Of a stretch of 64,000 nt of DNA, positions 3,118 through 32,479 are shown piece after piece. Where the stretch lies: the NCBI RefSeq assembly GCF_045037415.1, contig NZ_CP173438.1; one strand, written 5' to 3'. The notes under the pieces are model-generated. The model was not told the origin of the DNA, made no database searches, and was given only the letters and a program-made list of their open reading frames with translations. The translations under genes were made by a program, and so were the position numbers. How positions within the stretch are numbered: the stretch's first letter is position 1; each line of letters begins with the position of its first letter. This DNA comes from Escherichia coli (lineage in GTDB: Bacteria; Pseudomonadota; Gammaproteobacteria; Enterobacterales; Enterobacteriaceae).

Positions 3118-3150
3118 CTGCCCCATGTGGATATGGGGCAGGATTTTATT
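3118..3150. terminator. Putative bidirectional rho-independent terminator between convergent yjhU and transporter gene
   Basis: Inverted repeat TGCCCCATgtggatATGGGGCA followed by a T-rich tract. Confidence 0.5.
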
Positions 3151-4151
3151 GATTAGCGGCGATAATAAGAACAATACCCACAATGTATGAAATAAACATG
3201 GTCAGCAGCAGTTTATTGGTTCCGGCTGGCGCACTGGCAAATTCTCTCCAGATGAAGACTCCCCAGATCACGGCAATCATTGTGGCCCCCTGTCCCAGAC
3301 CGTAGGAAATGGCATACCCCGCCTGACCAGACGCAATCAGACTGAATGCCAGACCGACACACCAAATCATACCGCCCAGCCAGCCGCAAACATGATCCCG
3401 TAAGCTCCCGGAAAAATACATTTTCCCGTTGACCGGTTCTCCTGAAATAGGTTTTTTCATGACCAGCGTGTTAAGGACAAAGTTCGACAAGAACAGCCCC
3501 ACGGCAAACAGAACAAGTGCTGAGTAAGGCGTCATCAGACCGCTGGCAGGCTGGCTGAAATTGTCAGACATGGAGTCCGCCAAGAAGCGGAAAAACCATC
3601 CCATGATGATACCCGCCAGAATGGCAGTAATGAGAACCTTTATTACGGCGAGATTTATCCGCCTCCTGCGTGACACGACCATAGGCTATCGCGGTAAAAA
3701 TAATGGCGCTCACAACGCAGGCGACACCGAGGAACAGAATGAGCGGATCGCCCTGCGGATTGCCGATATAGGTGGTGATCACACCCAGAGCCAGTGCCAG
3801 CCCCACACCCACAGGAAAAGCTACCGCCATACCGGCAAGATTAATAGAAGCGACCAGAAGAATATTGGAAATATTGAAGATAATCCCTGCCAGTATTGCC
3901 GACATCAGACTACTGCTGCTCGCCTGCTGAATATCAGGTATAAAACTGCGACCGGCTTCGCCCATAGAACCCAGCGTGAAGGCAAATAACAAAGAACACA
4001 GCAATAATCCAATTGAATAATCCCAATAGAATAGAGGGAACTCCCATTTTTTATTGCTGACAAGTTTAGTTGTATTCGCCCATGAACCCCAGCAAATCAT
4101 GGTAATAAAACACATTATTATGGCGACAGCATACGATTCCACGATAAACAT
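3146..4151 (-). CDS. GRP/RbsU-type (DMT superfamily) sugar uptake protein, apparently frameshifted around 3645-3680
   Basis: Two overlapping minus-strand ORFs (3564-4151 and 3146-3682), both multi-TM, frames switching near a shared SRR(R) stretch. Confidence 0.55.
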
Positions 4152-8110: not shown

Positions 8111-8857
8111 ATGAAAAATGGAATCGATGTCAGCGTCATTATCCCTGCTTACAACGCCGCTGAAACCAGCGTTAGTTTGGTTACTAAAATCCTCAGTGAA
8201 CCCCACTTGGCTATTGAACTTATCATTGTCGATGACGGTTCTACTGATGAAACTGGCAACGTTCTTCGTCAAATCCACGATGATCGGCTCATTCTCATTG
8301 AGCAGGCCAATCAAGGTGTCTATGCCGCCCGAAATGCTGCTCTAGCCTTGCACCAAGGAGAATAGGTTATATTCCTTGATGCGGACGACGATATAGCAGA
8401 TGGGTTCATAGAAAAAAGATGGCAGGCAGTTAGTACGTCGCAAGCCGACGTCATGATCTTTAATGGCTGGCATTCCTGTGCTGACCAACATCGAAGAGCG
8501 GTTCACAAAAAGCAGCCCTATGGTACGCCTCTGTCAGGTTATTAATGGATTAGACACTGTGTTACACACCGCGAATGGCCGCATTATCTGTGGCTGCAGA
8601 TGGTCAGGCCATCCTATGTCAGGCAGCATTCACTGCGCTTCCAGTCCGGCAGGAGCCATAAAGACATTTTTTAAACGGTTCATCTTGCAGCGAGCAATGG
8701 TTGATTCTGTACATTGGATATAAAGGACTATATCTATATCAACAATAAGGCCTCTATCACACATCGGCCGGATTACTACGTTGTTCGTGCTATAAACTAT
8801 GTTGAAGTGATCGCGAAAATCATCCAAGTAGCGGAACAAGAACAAAACAAAAAATAA
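8111..8857 (+). pseudogene. Family 2 glycosyltransferase, degraded by frameshifts and stops
   Basis: Intact N-terminus VSVIIPAYNAA...IIVDDGSTDET, then DxD motif (FLDADDD) and later segments only in other frames. Confidence 0.5.
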
Positions 8858-9468
8858 AGGTATTTTTGTACCGGCATGCGCTGGTAGAGGCACGTCATTT
8901 TTTGGGACTCTACCGCAATCGCGTTGGGGATAAATCGGGCATGAAGGACTGCTTCAAAGCGAACATATTCGCAGCCCATTTATTCAGAGGTATCAGCAGT
9001 TTTAGCGATGTGTTTTTCTTTATTAAGCTGCTGGGCAAGCTATTCTGATAAGTTGTGCGTTGCTACACGACACCAGCGCACAGCTTAATTTCACGCTTTC
9101 TGACTAAATTGTTCAGGCCTTTTCTATAGGTGCAAACACAACTCCCCGTACTTTCCTCTTCCAACTCAAAATCATCGCACCTTGCTGACCCAAGAAGGGA
9201 GCATACCCTGCACTAGTATCCGCACAGCTAATACTCTATTGATACCAACAACGCTTCAGCACAACAAAGTAACTCGATAATCACAACTCAAAGTGAAGAT
9301 GCCAAAAACTCGTTTGAGAGCAATAAATTCAATAACATGAAAAAAATGTATTTTGCATTGAAAATCTTACTTATTGCGCTTGGCTACAATTGCATGCTTG
9401 GTAATATAGATTATAAAACACCAGACTAGCTGCCTGGTAAGTAATGTAATAGCAGAGGAAATATCACG

Positions 9469-12823: not shown

Positions 12824-13547
12824 ATTTCTAGCCAAGCTGGCGATGAACCAGTCCTCTAAAAAATGGGTATAATCATAGTTTATTTACTAATTAAATTAAT
12901 ATAAAGTAATTACTTTATTATATGGAGAATTTATGAAAATGGGAAAAATTGCAGTTACTCCTAATAATGATAAAGCAGCCAGCCACTCTAAAGATGAAAA
13001 TTTAGCCACAAATACAATTAAGAAAAACGTAAAACCTAAATATGGCGATGCGGCATTTTTAGAGTACACTCGACTAATAGTTAACCACCCGAATTATTTT
13101 GGAATGCCAGATCCCTTTGGGGAAAAAGGTGAGATTCAATGGGAAGCTCCATCAAATAGGGCATCGGGGAAATTTAAACACACTCATCAACGGCGCTATG
13201 AATGGTGGAAAAATAAAGCCAGAAGTATTGGGATAGACCCTGACACTGAAAAAGCATGGATTAGTAAAACAGCTAAACTAATTCATCCACTTGGAGTTAA
13301 ACCATGCAAGAAATGCGGTAAAGAAATGGAATTATCTTACTCCTACCCAAATGAGCATTTCTTTTCTCGGGTTAGGAAACTTAATTATATAGATGAGACT
13401 TTTGAGCTATCTCAAAATGAACACATAGTTGATTTGTTGACTCGTTTAGATGATAGATTTGGTGAAAGAATATATTTAGATTTACCACATTTATTTTCTA
13501 CAAAATCCATCACGATTTGAAGTGGTCAACAAAAACTGGCCACCGAG

Positions 13548-14695
<1,148 letters not shown>

Positions 14696-15928: not shown

Positions 15929-15952
15929 ATAGCCCTCTTATAAAGAGGGTTT
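15929..15952. terminator. Possible bidirectional terminator hairpin between convergent REase and MTase genes
   Basis: CCCTCTTtataAAGAGGG hairpin followed by TTTTAT; overlaps the C5-MTase stop. Confidence 0.3.
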
Positions 15953-17128
15953 TATATTCCTTTCATAATATTCTGAAGGAGTAATATTACCTCTCATGAA
16001 TAATTGATAGTCATTTTCGGGGTGATGGATATAATATTTACCACTTCCATCTTCACCATGTTGCAAAGGAGGCAGATCAGATAATGCATCCTTTACAGAT
16101 ACCCAAGATTCCTTATCTTCTGTTAATTTTTGTGGAGGTTCAATTGAAAATAAAGGGTCGTTTGAACCAACCAATATAACCCTTTTTCGGCGCTGAGGGA
16201 TTGCATAATGTTCAGAGTTTAATATCCATCCATTCATAGTTTTCATGGTTGATGAGAATTCTTCTTTGACTCTTTCAAAGACCTTACCTTTTTCCATATT
16301 CAACAAACCAGCAACATTTTCAAAAATAAAACCGTTTGGTTTTATCTCATTTAAGAGAGATTTATAATGCATAAAAAGTGAATTTCTTGGATCATCCATT
16401 GTTCTGGCATTTCCTGCCGTAGAAAATCCCTGGCATGGGGGTCCACCAAGTATCCATAATTGTTTATCAAAATATAATTTCTTAAATCCTGATATTTTAT
16501 CTGCTATTTTTGAAAAAGTTTCATTATCAGAAATGCTGCCACATAAAACTTCTTTGTGAACATTGTTTGAATATGTTTGTAGATATTTTTCTTCAATATC
16601 ATTCGCCAATAATGGAGTCCATCCAGCCCATTTGAATCCTAGTCCCAGCCCTCCAGCTCCGGAAAATAAATCGATATAATAACCAGTATTACCTATCGCC
16701 TTCTCTATTTCTTTCGCAATCAGAAAAGCTAAAAATGGGGGCACTGCATTACCGATTTGGGTATTAATTGCTGTTTGACCTCCGAAGAAAATAAAATCAT
16801 CCGGGAACGATTGTAGTCTTGCAGCTTCTCTCTGGGATAGAACACGATCTTGCTCATAGTGAATATGGCAACCATTCCCAGGTCGGTTAAAATATGTATT
16901 GATAGTATATGCAGGCATATCTGGAAGTAATCTACCGTAGTATGTTGAACGGCTTCCTTTTCCTTGTGCATAACTATCCCTAATTTGCTCTATTCTTTTA
17001 GACGGTACATCTAAAGGAATATTTTTCCAGTTGCCACCTGGCGGTACTGAGTTAACAATCATCATATCCAATTCACTTAGCTTTGCTGCCTTGTGATTGG
17101 GAATCATAAATGTTTCACTTTTAGTCAT
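15938..17128 (-). CDS. DNA (cytosine-5)-methyltransferase, circularly permuted motif order
   Basis: Motifs IX/X (RLQSFPDDFIF, QIGNAVPP) precede motif I (DLFSGAGGLGLGF), IV (GGPPCQGFSTAGN), VI (FIFENVAGLL), VIII (QRRKRVILVG). Confidence 0.85.
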   Translation of the reverse strand: MTKSETFMIPNHKAAKLSELDMMIVNSVPPGGNWKNIPLDVPSKRIEQIRDSYAQGKGSRSTYYGRLLPDMPAYTINTYFNRPGNGCHIHYEQDRVLSQREAARLQSFPDDFIFFGGQTAINTQIGNAVPPFLAFLIAKEIEKAIGNTGYYIDLFSGAGGLGLGFKWAGWTPLLANDIEEKYLQTYSNNVHKEVLCGSISDNETFSKIADKISGFKKLYFDKQLWILGGPPCQGFSTAGNARTMDDPRNSLFMHYKSLLNEIKPNGFIFENVAGLLNMEKGKVFERVKEEFSSTMKTMNGWILNSEHYAIPQRRKRVILVGSNDPLFSIEPPQKLTEDKESWVSVKDALSDLPPLQHGEDGSGKYYIHHPENDYQLFMRGNITPSEYYERNIKPSL

Positions 17129-18761
17129 AATGTTGAAAAATCCTCAATAAACTTTCTTTTTCAGCTAACTCAATCTTATCAAATGAAGACAGAAGCTTAT
17201 TAAATTCATTCAAATCCAATTTGTAAATATTTTTGGCAACATAAGCCTCAATTTTCAACTCAGCATCACAACATCCCTCTATGCAAGAAATCACAAGTTG
17301 TTTTAATTCAGAATGTTGTAATAATATTTTTTCAGACGGTATTGCAGTTTTTCGTAAGGCTGACAATGATACATGACCAGTAGCTAAAAAGCTTCTTAAT
17401 TGAAATTCAAAACAAAGGGAGTTTATAATACCAAGCAAACTAAAGAGCGAATCTTGCGAACCACTTTTATAATAGACCACCCCTAATGAATTCCCTGCCA
17501 AAGAGTTAGGAGGTATTATCGTTGCAATCATTCGCCTTTTTTGACTCGGGCGTGAAATGTCACGCCATGCAATCCTTACGAAATTAGAATTGGATAGAAC
17601 CTTATCAATTTTTTTCGTTATTCTTAAGCTCTTCTCATTATGAAAATTATACCTCCCAATCATTTTTCCTTTAATGAATAATAATCCGCCGCCACTTTTT
17701 TGTGTCCAGTCACTACTACCAGTTTCATCTATTTCTCTTCCTGCCCATATCTCTCCATTTTTTTCCAGACTACCCCATGTTGGGTATCCCTCTTGCAGCT
17801 TTCTTAACAAATGAACGGCATGAACACCTTGAGATACCGGAATGCTAAGATATTGAGAATCTATACTAGACAAATCAAAAAAACCTAGTGATTTAATATT
17901 TAAGTTTTTATCATACACACTAAGTTGAATATTATCATTAAGGGATTCACCTTTATTAAAAATAAAAGAACATGAAGAAACATCAGCACCGCCGAATAAT
18001 TTAGCCTCAGCTGGATAATAATTTATGCAATCAATCCTCCCTGAATTAAAAAACTTTTCACGTAATATGTACGATTGTTCATCTGCGAAAAAAGATGCAG
18101 GCATAACTATAGCTACCAATCCATTTTTATTACATATTTCTAAGCTAAGTTCTGCACCAACACGTGAAAGATTAGTCCCCCACCCAGCAAATTTACGCTT
18201 CGGCTGAGAATATGGCAATACTCTTGACAAATAATCATCAAACTCACGAAGAGAGTCTATATACATCGATTTCATAGATGGTTCAAAAAAATCGAGCTCT
18301 CTAGAATCTGGTTTTATATTCTCCCAAGGCGGATTGGTTATAACACAATCAAAATAATCAACATATTTTTTAAATTCATAAAAAACATCACTATTTTTTA
18401 TAGTAATGTTAATATTTGCACCTGCTAACTTAAGTTCAGACAACGCATTTTTAGCATAAGTGAGGCCTGTATTTTCTATATCGAACAGATAAACATTCCA
18501 CTCTACATCTGGAAAACCATTTATCATCCATTGTTTAATAAGCAATGTAATAAGTCGACCATCCCCTGAAAATGGATCTGCGACATTATAACTTTTTTTA
18601 TCACAGGAATTTATCAATGGTAATAACTTCTCTATCATCAAAAGAGCTATTTTTGGATCTGTATAGTATTTACCTGTCGCTTTTTTAGTGAATTTTGTTG
18701 TCTCGTCCAAGGACAGTGAATTAATTAAATGGATATGTTTCATGTAAAATATCTCTTCCAT
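17121..18761 (-). CDS. N6-adenine DNA methyltransferase
   Basis: Motif I VADPFSGDGRLI and motif IV VITNPPWE; stop overlaps the start of the downstream C5-MTase by 8 bp (operon). Confidence 0.8.
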   Translation of the reverse strand: MEEIFYMKHIHLINSLSLDETTKFTKKATGKYYTDPKIALLMIEKLLPLINSCDKKSYNVADPFSGDGRLITLLIKQWMINGFPDVEWNVYLFDIENTGLTYAKNALSELKLAGANINITIKNSDVFYEFKKYVDYFDCVITNPPWENIKPDSRELDFFEPSMKSMYIDSLREFDDYLSRVLPYSQPKRKFAGWGTNLSRVGAELSLEICNKNGLVAIVMPASFFADEQSYILREKFFNSGRIDCINYYPAEAKLFGGADVSSCSFIFNKGESLNDNIQLSVYDKNLNIKSLGFFDLSSIDSQYLSIPVSQGVHAVHLLRKLQEGYPTWGSLEKNGEIWAGREIDETGSSDWTQKSGGGLLFIKGKMIGRYNFHNEKSLRITKKIDKVLSNSNFVRIAWRDISRPSQKRRMIATIIPPNSLAGNSLGVVYYKSGSQDSLFSLLGIINSLCFEFQLRSFLATGHVSLSALRKTAIPSEKILLQHSELKQLVISCIEGCCDAELKIEAYVAKNIYKLDLNEFNKLLSSFDKIELAEKESLLRIFQHYD

Positions 18762-19790: not shown

Positions 19791-19901
19791 GACTCGATTT
19801 GCATACGGTATGGTGCTGCGTATTACCGTGAAGGAGATCGGTGAGTAACATCGATGGAGATCGGTTCGTGTCACTTTCACAGAACCGTTTTTAAATTACC
19901 T

Positions 19902-20651
19902 TCACTGATCTCCTTCGGTCAACGGAGATTGTATTTTCCGCATTGATTCTCCTTTAAGTTCGATCTTGATACTGCCATGAACCAGTCGATCTAGGATGGC
20001 ATCCGCATGTGTGGAGTCTCCGATCATTTTGTACCAGTTTTCCACCGGCAACTGGCTCACTACGATGATTGAGCCTCGTTGGTACATCAGATCCACTATT
20101 TCCAGCAGGTCGCTACGCTGTTCTGATGAGAGAGGTTCCAGCCCCCAGTCATCCAGAAGCAGCAGATCGCTATTATTCAGCCTGGTCAAAAGTTTGCTGT
20201 ATCTTCCATCAGCATGCCCCTGATAGCACTGTTCCATCAGCGCTTTAAGGCGATAATAGTAGACCTTGTATCCCTGTCGGCAGGCATTATGACCAAGTGC
20301 ACATGCCAGGAACGTTTTACCGCTGCCGGTGGCCCCGGTCAGTAAAATATTTTGTTTCAGGGTTAACCAGTTTCCCTGACTGAGTGAACGGATGAGGGCC
20401 CTGTCCAGCCCTCTATTGTTACGATAATCCAGCTTTGATAACTCAGCATTAAGTCTGAACCGTGCATGTTTGATCAGACGCTCTGCCTTCCTGTTTTCAC
20501 GGCAGGTTAGTTCTTCTGCTGTCAGTAATGACAGGCGTTCTTCGAAGCCCAGCTCCTGGTATGTGCCCGGTTGAGCAAGTTGCTTTTTAAGCGCATCACG
20601 GAAGCCGGTGAGTTTAAGTGCGGTCAGTTGTTCGTAAAGATGATTCATCAT
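19902..20651 (-). CDS. istB: IS21-family IstB ATP-binding helper protein
   Basis: 249 aa; Walker A LTGATGSGKTFLA, Walker B LLLLDDWG. Confidence 0.9.
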   Translation of the reverse strand: MMNHLYEQLTALKLTGFRDALKKQLAQPGTYQELGFEERLSLLTAEELTCRENRKAERLIKHARFRLNAELSKLDYRNNRGLDRALIRSLSQGNWLTLKQNILLTGATGSGKTFLACALGHNACRQGYKVYYYRLKALMEQCYQGHADGRYSKLLTRLNNSDLLLLDDWGLEPLSSEQRSDLLEIVDLMYQRGSIIVVSQLPVENWYKMIGDSTHADAILDRLVHGSIKIELKGESMRKIQSPLTEGDQ

Positions 20652-20662
20652 TGGATCCCGTA

Positions 20663-22204
20663 TCAGTGGTAATACTCACTGCCGCGTACGTTTTCGTGTT
20701 CCATCGTGGATAACAGATCTGGTTTTGGATCCTGAACAGGTTGTTTATCCAGACCTTTTTCCAGGATCGATTTAATACCTGACAGACGCCATACCTTTGT
20801 TTTCAGAGCTCTTGCACATGCTGCATTAAGTCTGGCTTTACTGTATTTTTTATGAAGGTTCAGGAGTCCAAGGCAGAAGCGATAGCTTTGTTCCGGATGT
20901 GGACGAGAGTTCAGTATATGAAGCACATAACTATGAGTTTCACTGCCTATGTGCCCCGCCCATTCCAGAAGACGCTCTGGCGTCCAGGTGGCATGCTGTC
21001 GATGAGCTTCAGGCATGTGCTCGTTGCGGGTACTGTAGCCATAAGTACGCTTGCGCGGGTGCACAGCAACCTCCTGCCCCTGATTGAAGAGTCTTACCAG
21101 TTCTCCGGAGATCCATGCTTCCAGTTGCTGGCCTAACAGCGAACATGGAACCGAGTAGTAATGTTTGTCGATTTCCACGTGGTAATCGGCATGAACTCTG
21201 ACTTTCTTCACCAGGGTGTAACTGTAACTGGCTTCAGGAAGAGGCTTCAGTGCGGGTTTATCAAGCTGGATGAAGAGTTCTGCACGTGAATAACCCAACT
21301 TCTGCATTATTTTGTTATTCAGTCTTTCCAGCAACTCCCGAATGCGCTGATTAAGCGATGCAAGGCTGTAGAAGATCTCATGCCTGATTCGGGCCATGAT
21401 CCAGCGTTCAACAACCTGAACGCCAACTTCAGCTTTGGCTTTATCTTTCGGTTTACGTGGCCGCGCAGGCAAAACTGCGACATTATAATGCTCAAGCATC
21501 TGCTGGTAGGTAGGGTTAACGTCAGGATCATACTTACATGCCCTGGATGTGGCGCTTTTCAGATTGTCCGGAACAACAAGTTCAGGAACGCCACCCAACC
21601 ACTGGAAGCAGCGAACATGACTCATCACCCAGTCTTCAAGCTGCTGAGACCAGGTGGCCTCTGCCCATGTGTAACTTGATGCCCCGAGAACAGCTACGAT
21701 GACCTGAGCAGTTCTTATTTCTCCGGTCTCAGGGTCGGTAACGCCAACGGTAGGTCCACAGTAATCAACGAAAAGTTTTTCGCCAGCTTTATGTACCTGA
21801 CGCATTGATGGTGAAGTGGTTTTGAGCCATTCACGGTACATCCGGCAGTAATGGTTATAGCTGTAAAAACCGCCTGGATTACGCTCACAGTATTCTTCCC
21901 AGAGTAGCTGCAGCGTCACGCATTTATTACGCAGTTCCCGGTGTACTGTAGCCCAGTCAGGCAGAGAGTGCTTCTTCATCTTAACCTGGGTCTGAAGGAA
22001 CGCATGTTTTAGTTTTGTATCATCCCATCCTGTAGGTAAGGGCCACTGCTTTATGCCAAGTTGAGCCGCCCGATTAGCATATCTGGATACAACGGAAGGG
22101 GAGATTGCAAGACTACGACCAATTTGTCGATGGCTGAGTCCAACACCGTATTTAAGCCTAAGAATTTCTTTAAGTTTTCTCATAGAAATTGGAACTGTTG
22201 GCAT
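20663..22204 (-). CDS. istA: IS21-family IstA transposase
   Basis: 513 aa; N-terminal HTH plus DDE integrase core. Confidence 0.9.
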   Translation of the reverse strand: MPTVPISMRKLKEILRLKYGVGLSHRQIGRSLAISPSVVSRYANRAAQLGIKQWPLPTGWDDTKLKHAFLQTQVKMKKHSLPDWATVHRELRNKCVTLQLLWEEYCERNPGGFYSYNHYCRMYREWLKTTSPSMRQVHKAGEKLFVDYCGPTVGVTDPETGEIRTAQVIVAVLGASSYTWAEATWSQQLEDWVMSHVRCFQWLGGVPELVVPDNLKSATSRACKYDPDVNPTYQQMLEHYNVAVLPARPRKPKDKAKAEVGVQVVERWIMARIRHEIFYSLASLNQRIRELLERLNNKIMQKLGYSRAELFIQLDKPALKPLPEASYSYTLVKKVRVHADYHVEIDKHYYSVPCSLLGQQLEAWISGELVRLFNQGQEVAVHPRKRTYGYSTRNEHMPEAHRQHATWTPERLLEWAGHIGSETHSYVLHILNSRPHPEQSYRFCLGLLNLHKKYSKARLNAACARALKTKVWRLSGIKSILEKGLDKQPVQDPKPDLLSTMEHENVRGSEYYH

Positions 22205-22917
22205 AGGTATCCTTTACCGGAATGGCAAAAGATACAGATCAACACACCTGTGAAGTTCCAATAACATTGATGGAGATCACTGAATAACAAAATGAGTCAA
22301 AAGTGATCTCCATCGATGTTATTCAGCGATCTGTTCAAATGTTATTACCCGATCTCGATGGAAGTTATTGAGTGATCTCCTTTCATGAAAATACGCAGGT
22401 GCGAAGGCCGGACTCAAACATGCGATTTAACCTCATGATTTAAAATTGTTAATAATAAACAACACCATCCTATACCAACACAGATACCAACACGAAAAAT
22501 CACTGGTTTTCGGCATCGAACCAGGACAATCAGGTCCTGATTGAGATACCGAGCTCTGTTACTCGTCATCTTCCTCGACAGGCTCCATTGCATCAAGTGG
22601 TACTCGCACCATCGCGATAGAACCAATCCGGATAAAAGCATCTTCCCCATCTATATCGGTTAACTGATATCGCTTACTTGATGCCGGATAATTGTGTCGA
22701 TTGGCAACAGTGTACTCTTTCGTACAGCCAGAATGTGGCAGACTGAGGTGGAATAGATAACGTCCGTATGCCCGCTGACCACCTCCGGGCGGGAGAGTGT
22801 GGTATCTGACATCATCATTTTTCCTTTCTGTTTATAAATGAAAATGCCAGCCGTGTTCAGGCTGACGTCAGGGAAGTGAAATCGGGTGAGTGATCTTCAC
22901 TGGTTCTGGTACAAAAG

Positions 22918-25369: not shown

Positions 25370-25843
25370 TCAGTCGATGATGCGCATAATGGCGCTGCAT
25401 TCCGGATGCTGCAGGGCGTAATCCCGCAGCCGGTAATAATGGACCGTCATGGCATAACACTCCGTACGACAGGCATGATGACTGTACGTCATCAGACAGG
25501 CAGCAATGCCGGCGGCTTCCGGGCTCATTTCAGCGCGGTTACCGTTCATGGCATTGAACAGTACCCATGTTTCGTCATCATCGTCATCCGGTTCGGGTGC
25601 CATAAATGCCCCGCCGTTGTTCAGGGTGTACAGATTCCAGATACCACCGCAGTAGTCTTCACACAGACGGTCCATCCAGCCGAAGATACGGGGCTCCAGG
25701 GTCACCCACTGTGGAATGAGGCCAAAGTGCTGCGGCCAGAAGCTGATGCGCCGTTCATCAGGGACGGGAGTGGCTACCAGTTTTTGCAGGTCAGTCTCCG
25801 GTGCACAGGCCGAAGAGGTGGTGTTCTGAGACAATGTTTTCAT
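25370..25843 (-). CDS. Antirestriction protein (ArdB/KlcA-like, YfjX/YafX family)
   Basis: ATG at 25843; MKTLSQNTTSS...FGLIPQWVTLEPRIFGWMDRLCEDYCGGIWNLYTLNNGGAFMAP... Confidence 0.8.
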   Translation of the reverse strand: MKTLSQNTTSSACAPETDLQKLVATPVPDERRISFWPQHFGLIPQWVTLEPRIFGWMDRLCEDYCGGIWNLYTLNNGGAFMAPEPDDDDDETWVLFNAMNGNRAEMSPEAAGIAACLMTYSHHACRTECYAMTVHYYRLRDYALQHPECSAIMRIID

Positions 25844-26184
25844 GTATGAAATCCTTGTAATGTGAATAAATGAGAGGGAGTAAAGGTCGGGAGCTGGCAA
25901 CATCACGTTCATCACTGACCGTGATGACCCGGTAATATCAGGGATGAATGATATTCGGCTGAAATTCCGGACAGCCGTACGCGTAACCGTTCCGGTCACA
26001 GACGGATGGCCAGATGCCATTGCCTGTATACTCAGTCTGCACAGACTGATTTCTCCGGGACGGTAAAGCAGACGGGTACACCAGGCGCACAGGTCATCAT
26101 CAGAAATGGAACGACACCCCGGCAGCGCCTCCGGGGCGTCGGGTGATTCTGGTGCCTGAATCACGCCTTCAGGGACATGCTGCA

Positions 26185-27003
26185 TCAGCGCAGGCTCTCC
26201 AGCAGCGTTTCTGCCATTACCCACAATGCGCGGTTGAGCTTAATATCGGTGTCGATGTTGTGAATGGCACGGGTGTGGATACGTTTTCCTTTTGCACTGC
26301 GGCCGGAAATTCCGCCTTTCAGCATATTCTCCTGGATGGTCTGATATGCGCTCCACAGGTCTTTACCGTAATCCTCCCGGCGTCGTGGTGTCAGAATGTC
26401 AGCGGTGGTGACTGGCTGATGTTCGTCACCATAACGGTAAGTCAGTGCCGCCTGTGCCAGCGCCTGGCGTGTCGGTGGCGGCAGGACCAGCGACTGCATG
26501 GCATCACGCTTTTCCTCAATCCGGTCAAACACGCCCACCACCTCGTAAGCCCCTTCAATGACTCTGTCCACCACATTTCCCCGATGCGGAACACGCACTT
26601 CCCCCGGAGACTGACCACAGACGCATCCGTTCTGACAGACGAACCTGAAGTAACCCGGCAGCATCTGGTAGCTGGAGGTACCGTCATGGGAGTTGAGCAG
26701 AATGATTTCAGGGACATGTTCTCCGTTTATCTCTCCGGCCCGCCGCAGACGCAGCATGTGTTTTGTGTATCCCCGGCGGCCCGGGTCGCGCACACGGGTC
26801 TGGCAGGCGAAGAATGGCTGAAAGCCTTCCCGCTGCAGGCTTTCCAGTACGGTGATGGTGGGAATGTACGCATATCGTTTACTGCGGGAAGTATGCCGGT
26901 CTTCACCGAAAATACTGGGAACATAGTGCATCAGTTCTTCGTGTGTCAGCGGACGGTCACGGCGTATCTGGTTCGTATAACCAAAACGACTGGCTAGTCG
27001 CAT
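26185..27003 (-). CDS. DUF932-family protein (YafZ/YfjQ-like)
   Basis: 272-aa ORF in the conserved position between Ag43 and the antirestriction gene. Confidence 0.7.
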   Translation of the reverse strand: MRLASRFGYTNQIRRDRPLTHEELMHYVPSIFGEDRHTSRSKRYAYIPTITVLESLQREGFQPFFACQTRVRDPGRRGYTKHMLRLRRAGEINGEHVPEIILLNSHDGTSSYQMLPGYFRFVCQNGCVCGQSPGEVRVPHRGNVVDRVIEGAYEVVGVFDRIEEKRDAMQSLVLPPPTRQALAQAALTYRYGDEHQPVTTADILTPRRREDYGKDLWSAYQTIQENMLKGGISGRSAKGKRIHTRAIHNIDTDIKLNRALWVMAETLLESLR

Positions 27004-27157
27004 AATTTGCTCCTTATCGGTGGTTAAGATTTACTGGTGTAATAAATGAAAAAGCCACGTCTCCCGGAGAAGACGCGGCCTGACAGATGAAATGAATGAC
27101 GTTTATTGTCTGAGAAGCCCTTAACTGGCGAGCTGAGTATTAAGCTGTGTTCCGGCA

Positions 27158-27352
27158 TCACCAGCGCAACTGACCTTCAGCATTACGGATAACCAGCCGG
27201 GAATATGTTCCCTGGTCATCTTCAGTAAACACATTGCGGTAAGCTGTTTTGACGGCAACAGCCTGTTCGCGTGAGAAAGGGCCTTCGGGCAATAAACGTG
27301 ATGTACAACCCGGCATATCTGTTGCTCCCTGAAAGTAAAAAGCCCCGGTCAT
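27158..27352 (-). CDS. Small hypothetical protein (DUF905-like)
   Basis: 64-aa ORF between flu and the DUF932 gene; family assignment uncertain. Confidence 0.35.
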
Positions 27353-27386: not shown

Positions 27387-30233
27387 TCAGAAAGTCACAT
27401 TCAGCGTGGCCTGACCGTTATAACCTTCAGCGCTGCTGCCGCTGACGCTGTGGGCATAACCGCCCTGAACGCCCAGGGTGATATTTTCCCGGATACGGGC
27501 TTCCAGTCCGGCCTGCAGGTCCAGTGACGTGCCATTCCGGGACGGTGAGAACGTCATGTTACTGCCGGCTGCGGCTGTCCCCATGCTCATGTCACCCCGG
27601 GAGCTGAAGGTGCGGATAACAGAAGGCTGTACCCACCAGTTCACCGGCAGTTCACTCACACTGTGTTTTGCACTGTCGCGCAGGGTGTCACGGGATGAGG
27701 TGCCTTCACCAAAGCTCATATCGTTGTGGCTGCCCAGACGGAAACCGGCACGCACATGTTGTGCACTGCCATGCCCGAACTTCACATAACCGGCGTTATC
27801 CTGGCCGTCATCCAGGGAGAGTCCCTGCCAGGTGTACTGCAGTTGTGGCTCCAGCATCAGATTGTCAGTGATACTGAAGGGCAGACCGGTTTCCAGTGAG
27901 CCCAGCCAGCCCCAGCCCCGGGCGCGGAAGTCGTTATTGTCCGATGACGCTTTCATGCTGTGACGGGTTCCCTGGGCCACAATGTCAGCCCACAGGCCGG
28001 AGGATGTGTGTACCAGATTCAGGTATCCGCCCAGACTGCCGGCATCATCCCGGACCGTGCCGGCGCGGGAGCCGTCATCATCCTTAACATCAACGGAAGA
28101 ATGGCCTGCGGCACCATACACCCCTGTCGTCAGAGACATACCGGCAACCTCTGTTCTGAGCAGGTCACCCTCCAGACGGACGAAGCCATAGCTGCCGCTG
28201 CTTTCCGGCGTGGCTCCACGGGCAATACCGCCGTTGTTATCGTGACCGAGATGACCGCCCTGAATGCTGAGACGGACGCTGTTATTTTCACCGTTTACAC
28301 CGGTCTGATGGCTGCGGGAGCCTGCCAGAATCCGGTCATAGTCCATTGCCTGTGTCAGCATGGATGTATACAGGGGGACTTCAGCACGATAAGCATTTTC
28401 ACTGCGCAGGTACCAGTCTTCATCGCTGTCACGGTTCAGGGTGTAGTTAAAGGCGCCGGCCTGAAGCGGGCGACTCAGGGCAAACGCACCTTCTTCTGTG
28501 GTGGCGCCATTCTGTGCATCCACAACCCGGATACCCTGTCCGGAGGTTGCCACCCCAAGGTTACTGTTTCCGACATTTGTAAACGCAAGCCAGGTTTTGC
28601 CGGTTGCCTGACCACCATTAATCACCAGCTGGTCAGAGGTATTGCTGCCATCAAGGCGAACACGCATATTGATGGTGCCACCCTGACCGGTGAGGTTACT
28701 GGTGGTCAGTTTATGGAACGTTACCGGGGAGTCGCCTTTTGCAACAGCACGGCTCAGCGCGGCATCCGGTGTCGTCTGATTATCAAAGCGAATCTCCCCT
28801 GCGTTAACAATATCGCCGGTACTGACCACATCACCATTCAGTACCATGCTGGCACCTTTACTGAGCTGTGTTCTGCCACTCAGATTTCCCCCGGCAGCCA
28901 GCGTCAGTGTTCCACGATGTCCGACAGTGGTGTTGCCAGCCTGTCCTCCGGCATTAACCGTAAAGCTGCCGCCATTTTCCAGCAGCAGGCCGCTGGCCTG
29001 ACCGGAGATACCATCAATACTGAACTTACCGCTGGCATTGGTCCCCTCAACAGTGGCACCACTGTCTGCTATCAGGGCACCACCGGATGTCATGGTGACA
29101 TCTGTTGCCTTACCACCGGCAGACACTGCCAGGATACCGCCGTCATCCACCAGGGTATTCTGCGCTGAATGGCCTTCCAGTACATCCAGGCGACCACCGG
29201 ACTCCAGAACAACACCGTCAGCATTACCGTTTTCCACAGTGAAATTGCCCAGACGGTTGCTGCCGGTGACGGTTGCCGCCGTACTGGTGACCAGTGCGCC
29301 TCCCTGCTTCAGGGTGACATTCGTGGCTGTACCACCGGCGTTCACCTGCAGTTTGCCTTTCTGGTTAACGGTGGTGAAATCCGCCAGACCACCTTCCTTG
29401 ACAATCTGCCAGCCGTCACTGTTTACAACCGTGTCAGAGGCTGTGCCTCCGTTGTGCACATACTGGTAACCGCCATTCAGTGTGGTATCCAGCGCATGCC
29501 CGTGTACCGTCTGGTCGCCGCCGGCATAAACCACAGTGGTATTTGCTGTTCCTTCAGCAGCCACAATCTGACGACCATTTTTATTGATGGTGGTACGTAC
29601 GGCATTTCCGCGAACAAACTGCCCGGTATCACCATTGTCTGCATCTGGTCCCCCTTCCGCGCCGGTATTCACAACCGTGTCGGTTGCCATTGCGCCGGAT
29701 TTGACGGCCTGCCAGCCCTTCTCATTAATGACGGTACCCGTTGCAATCCCGCCTTCATGTACCCACTGCTCACCGCCGTTCAGAGTGGTATTCACTGCCT
29801 GCCCCTGAAGGCTCTGTCCTCCTCCGGCACTGATAACCGTGTCTGAAACGCTTCCTCCGGCATTCACTCTCTGAAGACCACCACCGGTGACAGTAGTGTT
29901 GTTGGCGATACCGCCATTTTGTATCCATTGTCCGCCGGTATTGGCCTCGTTATCCGGCCCATACTCCAGCCCGGTACTGATGGTCATTCCGTTGGCCGTA
30001 CCGAGGACAATCTGGTTGTCATGATTTGTCAGTGTTCCGTCGTTCACGGTTTCTCCCGCCTGTACAACCGTGTCAGCAGCCAGTGCCGGGACTGATGTGA
30101 CAGCAGCAAGAGACAGTGCAACCGCCACACCGGCGCGTTTTCCCCGTGAGCGGGCCAGTTCGGAGGCCACCACCAGGGTGCCCGTAATGTGATTCCATAC
30201 CAGCCTGTAGCTGGTGTTCAGATGTCGTTTCAT
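27387..30233 (-). CDS. flu: Antigen 43 (AIDA-I-type self-associating autotransporter adhesin)
   Basis: ATG at 30233 ([18 protein letters not shown]...), extended signal peptide, repetitive beta-helix passenger, C-terminal beta-barrel ending ...ATLNVTF. Confidence 0.9.
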
Positions 30234-30444
30234 CAGCTTTTCCTTACAGAGGGTGAATAAAAAAGCCGGTACCCACAAAAGTGGATACCGGCAGGTACAA
30301 AACAGCATGGTCAGATAAAGTGGTTTTTCCCGGACATAAATGCTTCCCCTCTCTCATCCGCCAGAGAAGTATCAGTCCGTTGTGTGCAATTCCGTTCTGC
30401 ATGATGAAGAGATTCAGCTGCCTTTTCGCAGACCATTAACCACT

Positions 30445-30490
30445 ATAAACGATCGATGGTAACGATCGATACCTGTTTTATCGATCGTTT
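30445..30490 (-). promoter_or_regulatory. flu (agn43) phase-variation switch region with three clustered GATC (Dam) sites
   Basis: GATC at 30451-30454, 30464-30467 and 30483-30486 upstream of the flu start. Confidence 0.55.
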
Positions 30491-30580
30491 TATTCTATTA
30501 ACAGCAGAGCAGTCACGCAAGAGAAACAGGAGGGGGATGGAGTGTTTGTATCATGTTTTCAGTTGGTTAACGCAATGTAA

Positions 30581-31477
30581 TCAGGCATTTCCCCTGGCAG
30601 AGTGTTCAGAAGAAAATCCAGTTCCATACAGCGCGGGCAACAGAGACCACCGTGTCACGGACGGCACGCAGAACCGTGCGTGCAACAGAGGCAATACAGA
30701 CGCTCTCCGCCGTGTCAAATATCCGGTCCACCGCACCGGTAAACTGTTCACGGGCCTGAACCGGACAGATTCCGTGCGCAGCTCGTCCTGCAGGCGGGTC
30801 ATCAGGGGACTGGCGGCATGGTCGGGAAGTGCTGTCATGAGCGCACTGACCAGCGTATCCAGTTCCCAGCCGGTGCGGGCCGATACGGCCACAACCGGAT
30901 GTACGGGCCGGAACAGACGGAATACCGCCTCCGTTTTCTCCCGAATGTTCTGTGCCTGTGCGGGAGAAGGCTGAATGCCGGCCATATCCCATTCATGGCA
31001 GGGCTCCGTTTTGTCGGCCTGCGTCACCACAAACAGCACCTGCTGATGTCCCCGGTGCAGGATGTGTCGCCAGAAATACTCATCCACAGACAGGGCACGG
31101 TCATCGGCTTTAATCAGCCACAGTACCAGGTCAAGTTCAGGCAGAATGTCACGGTACAGGGCTTCATACTCTGCATCCCTGTTCCGGCTCTCGCCCACCC
31201 CGGGCAGGTCAGTGATAACCATGCTGTGACCATGGCCACTCAGACGGAAGCGCCGTACTTCCCGGGTGCCGGCGTGAACATCACTGACCGGGGTGACCTC
31301 CCCCTGAAACAGTGCATTACAGAGTGAGGATTTACCGGCCCCGCTTTTACCCATAATGCCAATCACGGGTTCGTGACTGGTGAGTTTGCGCAGATGTTCC
31401 AGGATGTGACGGGAAAGCGAGTAAGGCAGGGAGGAGAGCGGTTTTTCAATTGCCTCAATGGCATCAGACGGATTCAT
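30581..31477 (-). CDS. yeeP: YeeP/YkfA/YfjP-family GTPase, probable C-terminal frameshift near 30770-30780
   Basis: G1 motif GIMGKSGAGKSS, G3 DLPGVG; the conserved C-terminus (...QAREQFTGAVDRIFDTAESV...) is in another frame (ORF 30606-30992). Confidence 0.7.
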   Translation of the reverse strand: MNPSDAIEAIEKPLSSLPYSLSRHILEHLRKLTSHEPVIGIMGKSGAGKSSLCNALFQGEVTPVSDVHAGTREVRRFRLSGHGHSMVITDLPGVGESRNRDAEYEALYRDILPELDLVLWLIKADDRALSVDEYFWRHILHRGHQQVLFVVTQADKTEPCHEWDMAGIQPSPAQAQNIREKTEAVFRLFRPVHPVVAVSARTGWELDTLVSALMTALPDHAASPLMTRLQDELRTESVRFRPVNSLPVRWTGYLTRRRASVLPLLHARFCVPSVTRWSLLPALYGTGFSSEHSARGNA

Positions 31478-31561
31478 ACATGTATTCCCGGTGAAAAAAG
31501 ACAAAACCCCCGCACACCGGAAAGGTGGCGGGGGACTCACGGAGATAATATATGTCTGAAA

Positions 31562-32479
31562 TTATCTGGAATGTCGGTACCTTTTATACTCTTCAACAAT
31601 CAGGTCATGCAGCATTTCGCCGGTACTGAGTCTTCTGACCCTCGATAATTCTTTGAGCTGCGCCCTGGTTTCTGCGTCAAGAAAAAACTGTACATTGACT
31701 TTATCTTCCTGCATTTTTTTGTACTTGCGCTGCGCCTTGGCCTTATTGAAACTGTTTCTGAAATTTTTTATATCGTCAGGTGAGGTGAGTGGACAGGTAA
31801 CCCATATGTCAAATGAAAGGTGGATTGCGTGGTAAATATCAGCAGAACCAGGAAAACTGGCCAGTTTTTCCAGTGCAATATTTTTTCCCTTCAAATAATT
31901 CCATGTCCATATGCATTCATGTTCGTTCTCCGGGAGGAGGTAACTGAAAGGACTCTTTGATTTAAATGCCCGTATCCATCTGTCTTTGGTCTGGATTATC
32001 CACTCATCCCGCAAATTCTTATCAGAAAGAATATCGAGAACTCTGAGTATTTGTCTGAACTGTGTCGATGAGTCCGACGGGAAGGCATTCCCTTCCAGAT
32101 ACTCTTCTTTAAGATACAGTTTATTCTTTTGAAGCAAGTCTGCGCTTATTTTTGCCCTGTTATTCTGGATAAACTGCATCAACAGATACCAGGAAAATAA
32201 GCATGCGCGTTCACTGCCCGCGATCCAGGATATTTTTTCCAGGGGGACCAGGAAGGCCAGGGCCTTCAGACGCATACCAGAAATTATTTGTTCAAGTTCA
32301 AAATCTGAAAGTGTGATGTTCAGATTTTCTCTGTTTTTTTTTATGTAAGCGATAAAACGTTCCGGGGGATCATAAACATTAAGGGGCAGTACGGAGATAT
32401 TACGCTCTCCAAGATAATAAGAGTAATACGCATTTGTTCTTTCATTCATAACCTTATCCGACAAAATTTTCTGAACCAT
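31562..32479 (-). CDS. Hypothetical protein (305 aa) with C-terminal ribbon-helix-helix-like segment; AT-rich
   Basis: Long uninterrupted ORF; C-terminus VNVQFFLDAETRAQLKELSRVRRLSTGEMLHDLIVEEY; no recognised family. Confidence 0.6.
   Translation of the reverse strand: MVQKILSDKVMNERTNAYYSYYLGERNISVLPLNVYDPPERFIAYIKKNRENLNITLSDFELEQIISGMRLKALAFLVPLEKISWIAGSERACLFSWYLLMQFIQNNRAKISADLLQKNKLYLKEEYLEGNAFPSDSSTQFRQILRVLDILSDKNLRDEWIIQTKDRWIRAFKSKSPFSYLLPENEHECIWTWNYLKGKNIALEKLASFPGSADIYHAIHLSFDIWVTCPLTSPDDIKNFRNSFNKAKAQRKYKKMQEDKVNVQFFLDAETRAQLKELSRVRRLSTGEMLHDLIVEEYKRYRHSR

Follow-up and report, generated by a model that had tools for sequence, protein, structure and literature searches.

The closest described relatives of the gene analyzed here are ykfA, yfjP and yeeP of Escherichia coli K-12, located in the islands CP4-6, CP4-57 and CP4-44, respectively. 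They belong to the same family of GTPases, to which the G motifs and a C-terminal tail of the form ...VVSVARAVW(N/D)(W/F)(I/F)FF are common. In K-12, yeeP lies directly upstream from isrC and flu/agn43; its 5' part has been lost, leaving 426 nt, and this lesion is undoubtedly real. Among the titles and abstracts that a literature search on yeeP, ykfA and yfjP yielded, none concerned the function of this GTPase family.

The second system of relevance is EcoMI (= Eco31I), a type IIS system found in the GI-leuX island of E. coli ST131. SMRT sequencing of the ST131 strain EC958 detected m6A at 100% of the GAG(m6A)CC sites, and GGT(m5C)TC was predicted for the opposite strand; the EC958 methyltransferases are 100% identical to M1/M2.Eco31I and the genes of the system lie in GI-leuX (Forde et al. 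2015, PMC4659465).

The GTPase gene is carried by a stretch of 64,000 bases of an E. coli chromosome (the window), which is collinear over its whole length with O25b:H4-ST131 genomes. The region is the GI-leuX island of an ST131-type chromosome; its layout, from yjhG by way of McrBC and the Eco31I-type restriction-modification genes to the fec operon, corresponds to the island given this name by Forde et al. The gene set and neighbourhood are the same as those of EcoMI: McrBC, an endonuclease of the Alw26I/Eco31I/Esp3I family, and m5C and m6A methyltransferases.

The GTPase gene and its reading frames

The initial annotation had described a YeeP-like GTPase that appeared frameshifted, with its motifs in a main frame and the conserved C-terminal segment in a second one. 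Both overlapping minus-strand ORFs, 30581..31540 and 30606..30992, were recovered at these coordinates. The first, 319 aa long when counted from GTG 31540, houses the GTPase domain: a profile search yielded a match to MMR_HSR1 (E = 1.3e-14), models of the Era/Der/MnmE type also matched but well under their cut-offs, and the motifs G1 (GKSGAGKS), G3 (DLPG), G4 (TQAD) and G5 (SAR) are all located upstream from the frame break. The second ORF, which gave no family match when scanned alone, has QAREQFTGAVDRIFDTAESV...WNWIFF as its last 50 residues and terminates in ...QAREQFTGAVDRIFDTAESVCIASVARTVLRAVRDTVVSVARAVWNWIFF. Analysis of the GTPase with PADLOC detected only weak similarity, to dynamin-like LeoA/LeoBC models, and with PHROGs only families of unknown function.

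RefSeq contains E. coli records that are 100% identical to window positions 30400-31700, in which PGAP labels the gene "GTPase family protein, frameshifted". The gene limits in these records correspond to window 31477 (ATG) and 30606 (stop), a length of 872 nt. GTG 31540, the start of the ORF in the initial annotation, is thus only the start of the longest ORF, and the real start is ATG 31477. For comparison we used the allele of strain 4/1-1, which is 99.9% identical and contains an unbroken gene of 873 nt encoding WP_001553935.1 (290 aa); the annotations of strains 4993 and Esc7 likewise show the intact 873-nt allele. The features of the locus are as follows.

30606..31477, minus strand: YeeP/YkfA/YfjP-type GTPase gene as assembled, 872 nt; the intact gene for WP_001553935.1 has 873 nt
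30606..30758, minus strand: coding segment for the true C-terminus, read in the other frame (QAREQFTGAVDRIF...VVSVARAVWNWIFF); its conservation extends to YkfA, YfjP and the K-12 yeeP fragment
30581..30759, minus strand: end of the main ORF after the break, with 59 unrelated, out-of-frame residues (FRPVNSLPVRW...ARGNA); the ORF extends 25 nt beyond the true stop
31478..31540, minus strand: upstream extension from GTG 31540, outside the gene; all related records annotate the start at ATG 31477
30758..30762, plus strand: corrupted Eco31I site, reading GAACC instead of the GAGACC of the reference (alignments to the intact allele and to strain 4993)
30252-30488, minus strand: IS102/IsrC sRNA match (Rfam, 68 bits, above the gathering score), between the GTPase and Ag43/Cah genes

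Alignment on the gene strand revealed one difference only within the gene, namely GTCCGGTCTCAGG in the intact allele against GTCCGGT-TCAGG in the window. On the plus strand, one G (C on the gene strand) is absent between 30759 and 30760. The initial annotation had predicted a single-base change near 30770-30780; it is indeed a single base, located about 10-20 nt away from that interval. When one C was put back into the window gene, the encoded protein was identical to WP_001553935.1. No homopolymer or other slippage-prone context is present at the break site.

Alignment with intact YkfA and YfjP had been suggested as a check, with homologues ending like the main frame as the result that would speak against a frameshift. 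The opposite was found: K-12 YkfA and YfjP, the yeeP fragment and the 99.9% identical allele all end like the alternative frame of the window and not like its main frame, so that the frame break, a one-base gap relative to the intact orthologues, is real in the sequence as given. As assembled, the product consists of native residues 1-239 followed by 59 out-of-frame residues, and 51 conserved C-terminal residues are lost. The P-loop GTPase domain, with G1, G3, G4 and G5, and the island context are those of the family, but the C-terminal tail (...VVSVARAVWxxxFF) is out of frame with the GTPase domain. If intact, the gene would encode a P-loop GTPase of 290 aa, of the YeeP/YkfA/YfjP type found in CP4-type islands, with a conserved hydrophobic or amphipathic tail at its C-terminus.

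The surroundings of the gene show the order of a CP4-type island, all on the minus strand: a gene for a 305-aa hypothetical protein, the GTPase gene, the IS102/IsrC match, GATC sites and the Ag43/Cah autotransporter gene, followed by DUF905, DUF932, antirestriction, RadC, DUF987 and YeeU/CbtA genes. The 305-aa protein (WP_000250227.1; 31562-32479, minus strand), encoded directly upstream from the GTPase, gave no PADLOC or PHROGs match, and the Rfam scan gave nothing besides the expected IS102/IsrC match. This match is overlapped by three clustered GATC sites of the agn43 switch region, at 30451, 30464 and 30483; such a cluster is characteristic of the switch through which Dam and OxyR control phase variation of agn43. 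Between the end of the shifted GTPase frame, at 30581, and the IsrC match, about 90 nt remain. The K-12 order yeeP-isrC-flu matches the order in the window, where the GTPase gene is upstream from the IS102/IsrC match and cah; unlike yeeP, the window gene is full length except for one base.

Differences from strain 4993 and the Eco31I motif

Alignment of the window with the ST131 strain 4993 over 64,000 bases showed two one-base indels and no substitutions. Both indels are located within GAGACC, the complement of which, GGTCTC, is the Eco31I site, and both affect motif positions 3-4; the motif struck is the one recognized by EcoMI. In strain 4993 the same 64 kb contain 11 copies of GAGACC, that is 66 bases, and the chance of both differences landing in the motif is P about 1e-6. 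Two of the 11 copies are affected in the window, and no flanking-context rule for which copies are affected was found among the 11 sites. The GTPase deletion is one of these indels; the other is the following.

3632..3638, plus strand: second corrupted Eco31I site, GAGAACC instead of GAGACC, with an extra A at 3635 (window/4993 alignment)

The insertion at 3635 frameshifts the gene for a GRP-family sugar transporter (about 3146-4151, minus strand), with four in-frame stops downstream. The transporter gene is annotated as "frameshifted" with this lesion in strains Esc7 and Esc10 and is intact in Esc5 and 4993. With the methylated positions taken from PMC4659465, the G missing from the GTPase gene pairs with the m5C of GGT(m5C)TC and adjoins the m6A of GAG(m6A)CC, and the extra A is at the m6A position. 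Both lesions are thus at or next to the bases that would be modified in the methylated motif.

Another gene of the island, encoding a DUF905-family protein (27121-27316, minus strand) downstream from Ag43/Cah, is annotated as "frameshifted" in all related records, including 4993. No GAGACC-type motif is found near this gene, which, unlike the GTPase gene, therefore looks like a genuine pseudogene.

The genes of the Eco31I-type system of the window are the following.

17121..18761, minus strand: Eco31I-type N6-adenine DNA methyltransferase (M1.EcoMI homologue), intact ORF with N6_Mtase and Eco57I matches; WP_001295726.1 in strain 4993
15938..17128, minus strand: Eco31I-type C5-cytosine DNA methyltransferase (M2.EcoMI homologue), intact ORF with a DNA_methylase match (E = 6.9e-61); WP_001295727.1
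12933-13520 and 14843-15925, plus strand: Eco31I-type endonuclease gene, split, with ISEc52 (IS3-family) between the two parts at about 13525-14695

In this respect the window differs from EcoMI: judged from the sequence, only the methyltransferases look functional. With the endonuclease gene split and the methyltransferase genes intact, the methyltransferases are effectively orphan in the window. The endonuclease gene is uninterrupted in the Esc strains and in strain 98212, and the latter carries a complete Eco31I-type system. The cognate methyltransferase is encoded in each of the assemblies examined for it, namely the window, Esc5, Esc7, Esc10 and 98212. An insertion of ISEc12 (IS21-family, istA/istB), at about 19817-22397 in the window, is also present in 4993 and 98212 and absent from the Esc strains. 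The Esc strains contain an ISEcp1-blaCTX-M-15 / IS26 / aac(6')-Ib-cr / blaOXA-1 block between the methyltransferase and endonuclease genes.

Distribution of the lesions among related assemblies

The deletion allele was found as an exact 81-nt match in 31 of about 4,490 E. coli records with a match to this gene family, and the insertion allele, also as an exact match, in 10 of 1,237 E. coli records with a match. At least 523-536 genomes share the window flanks across at least 80% of their length. Among the matches listed, records outside the 31 exact carriers span one extra base at the deletion site.

The carriers of the two lesions overlap but are not nested, as seen in the following strains.

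Esc5: GTPase gene frameshifted, GRP transporter gene intact
Esc7: GTPase gene intact (WP_001553935.1), GRP transporter gene frameshifted
Esc10: GTPase and GRP transporter genes both frameshifted
447: deletion allele and insertion allele
439 and 463: absent from the listed deletion carriers, insertion allele

The records of strains 447, 439 and 463 are near-identical in length. In the collection searched, both lesions together with the IS content of the window occur in no record; 98215, 447 and Esc10 each show structural differences from the window. For the Esc series, 21 records are listed with the deletion, among which Esc10 alone also has the insertion; Esc7 and Esc25 have the insertion only. 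Most genomes of this series measure 5,156,475-5,156,542 bp, and those of Esc5, Esc7 and Esc10 are within about 40 bp of each other.

From each of Esc5, Esc7 and Esc10 a region of about 47 kb was taken, of which about 46.6 kb are shared. Over this shared region only four sites differed, and all four were in GAGACC/GGTCTC: the A insertion, the GTPase G deletion, a G deletion at the GAGACC copy that corresponds to window 35192, and a C to T change at the m5C of a GGTCTC copy. The occurrence of all combinations at two sites, together with the confinement of all differences to one hexamer, is not how inherited mutations in near-clonal isolates behave. Strain relatedness does not account for the pattern on a wider scale either: strain 4993 has no SNPs relative to the window, yet its GTPase gene is intact, and strain 98212 has 36 SNPs in 13.3 kb, yet the deletion is present. 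The pattern is non-nested among Esc5, Esc7 and Esc10, and the lesions are not reproduced between near-identical assemblies.

In strain 98212 the deletion is present in two paralogous CP4-type islands with Ag43 genes, which share 98.5% identity. No difference separates the two copies between the equivalents of window positions 29750 and 31000, and their flanks differ. Gene conversion was considered as the source of the deletion in both islands; it is possible but unneeded, because an explanation based on the motif covers both copies. One of the islands has an IS66-family element upstream from the GTPase gene.

Further lesions were found in the same assembly at the same motif, and two of the affected genes are listed here.

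8123-9191 of the stretch extracted from NZ_CP173524.1: hisB of strain 98212, annotated as "frameshifted"
25643-27186 of the same stretch: istA of ISEc12 in strain 98212, annotated as "frameshifted"

The 98212 hisB gene reads ACGAGAACCG and its lesion is GAGAACC. In istA, GAGAACC and GGTTCTC are found where the window has GAGACC and GGTCTC. The GRP transporter gene of 98212 has GAAACC in place of GAGACC. It is suspicious in its own right that a clinical isolate should have a frameshifted hisB, and these observations suggest that false pseudogenes occur genome-wide in the 98212 assembly. Overall, differences at positions 3-4 of GAGACC amounted to 2/2 in the window, 4/4 in the Esc strains and 4/5 of those inspected in 98212.

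Origin of the frame break

The missing base lies in GAGACC, the site of erratic one-base errors in several recent E. coli assemblies; the GTPase gene is therefore most likely intact in the organism and encodes WP_001553935.1. We consider it highly probable that the frame break is a methylation-induced consensus error of long-read, probably nanopore, sequencing and not a mutation. The statement that the GTPase is frameshifted thus holds for the sequence, where PGAP agrees with it, and probably does not hold for the organism, in view of the location of both window indels in the Eco31I motif and of their patchy occurrence.

The motif location, the methyltransferase genes, the statistics and the patchy distribution are observed, and the sequencing platform and the mechanism at the signal level are inferred. 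The mechanism would be as follows. The C of GGT(m5C)TC and, on the opposite strand, the A of GAG(m6A)CC would be modified by the two Eco31I-type methyltransferases, and these modified bases would distort the sequencing signal. The basecaller or polisher may then drop, duplicate or miscall a base at some copies of the motif, and the entry of the error into the consensus would vary from run to run. Methylation-related nanopore errors have been described as motif- and strain-specific, with small differences in read frequency deciding the consensus at random (PMC11389150, PMC11610573).

The strongest competing explanation is a genuine one-base deletion, which would make the gene a real recent pseudogene, or a C-terminally altered variant, of an ST131-like sublineage. 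The break is present in the sequence as given, and the exact allele occurs in 31 RefSeq complete genomes from several submitters, where it is annotated as "frameshifted". That 31 independent public assemblies contain the same allele and that PGAP accepted it counts against an artefact, as a real clonal deletion would look alike. So does the restriction of the lesions to 2 of the 11 motif copies in the window, for which no context rule was found. The decay of YeeP-family genes in nature also counts against an artefact: the family consists of dispensable island genes, K-12 yeeP is a truncated 426-nt remnant, and the neighbouring DUF905 gene is frameshifted even in 4993. A clone-specific real deletion was first favoured on account of the 31 carriers and was then dropped, because the link with the motif and the non-nested pattern emerged. 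The lesion and the one further difference in 64 kb both fall in a rare methylated motif; the lesion is distributed in a non-nested manner among near-identical isolates whose other differences all sit in the same motif; it is at odds with SNP distance and is present in two paralogous copies of one genome; and it affects a site with no homopolymer or slippage-prone context. A genuine deletion is accordingly improbable.

A second explanation, to which we attach very little probability, is that GAGACC/GGTCTC is a hot spot in vivo, at which Eco31I-type methylation or restriction activity provokes indels and C-to-T changes, so that the isolates truly differ; as its mechanism, just as doubtful, the adjacent m6A and m5C marks would cause replication or repair slips. 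If this were true, genes such as the GTPase gene would switch on and off. The location in the motif of all differences between near-identical isolates would be expected from such a hot spot, and one of the four Esc differences is a C to T change at the m5C. Change of C to T at m5C is a known deamination hot spot, as at Dcm sites, but insertions of A and deletions of G do not arise by deamination. Eco31I cleaves outside its recognition sequence (1/5), so misrepair of its cuts would not reach positions 3-4, and in the window the lesions are present all the same with the endonuclease gene split by an IS. At least 523-536 genomes share the flanks, but only 31 and 10 records have the lesions, and the ST131 records inspected one by one, such as 4993 and 4/1-1, are intact. 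Moreover, strain 98212 would be auxotrophic for histidine if its hisB were truly frameshifted.

Programmed ribosomal frameshifting, or another form of recoding, that joins the two overlapping frames, which jointly encode a complete homologue, into a full-length GTPase was rejected as scarcely credible, since the annotated non-carriers inspected (4/1-1, 4993 and Esc7) encode the protein in a single frame, the break context CGG-TTC-AGG contains neither an X-XXY-YYZ slippery heptamer nor a conserved stimulatory element, and even near-identical isolates do not all share the arrangement in two frames.

With a consensus error as the preferred explanation, the GTPase is most likely an ordinary, already catalogued island protein (WP_001553935.1), and the feature itself, being ordinary or artefactual, is of low biological interest. 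Its implications concern genome data. In E. coli carriers of Eco31I-type methyltransferases, including the pandemic ST131 clone, GAGACC seems to be a source of one-base indels in the "complete" genomes recently made public, and annotation pipelines turn these indels into frameshifted pseudogenes, such as those of the GTPase, the GRP-family sugar transporter, hisB and the IS21 transposase. Artefacts of this kind, whether taken for pseudogenes or for differences between isolates, can bias the number of pseudogenes counted, the distances used in cgMLST or outbreak work, and analyses of evolution within hosts. They would be flagged by simply screening positions 3-4 of GAGACC for indels.

The literature searched contained no report of nanopore errors at GAGACC/GGTCTC, a motif whose m6A and m5C occupy neighbouring base pairs on opposite strands, and no mention of it as prone to error, which weighs against an artefact. 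So does the kind of error: the published nanopore methylation errors consulted are mostly purine/purine or pyrimidine/pyrimidine substitutions, whereas those found here are mostly one-base indels (G deletion, A insertion), with some substitutions. In other respects the present case resembles the nanopore methylation errors described by Lohde et al. 2024 (PMC11610573), in a multicentre study (PMC11389150) and by Chiou et al. 2023 (PMC10687267). The lesions are likewise confined to a strain-specific motif, and, as with the known errors, they occur, in the assemblies examined for this, in genomes that encode the methyltransferase, are irreproducible between assemblies of the same or a near-identical strain and give rise to false allele or pseudogene calls.
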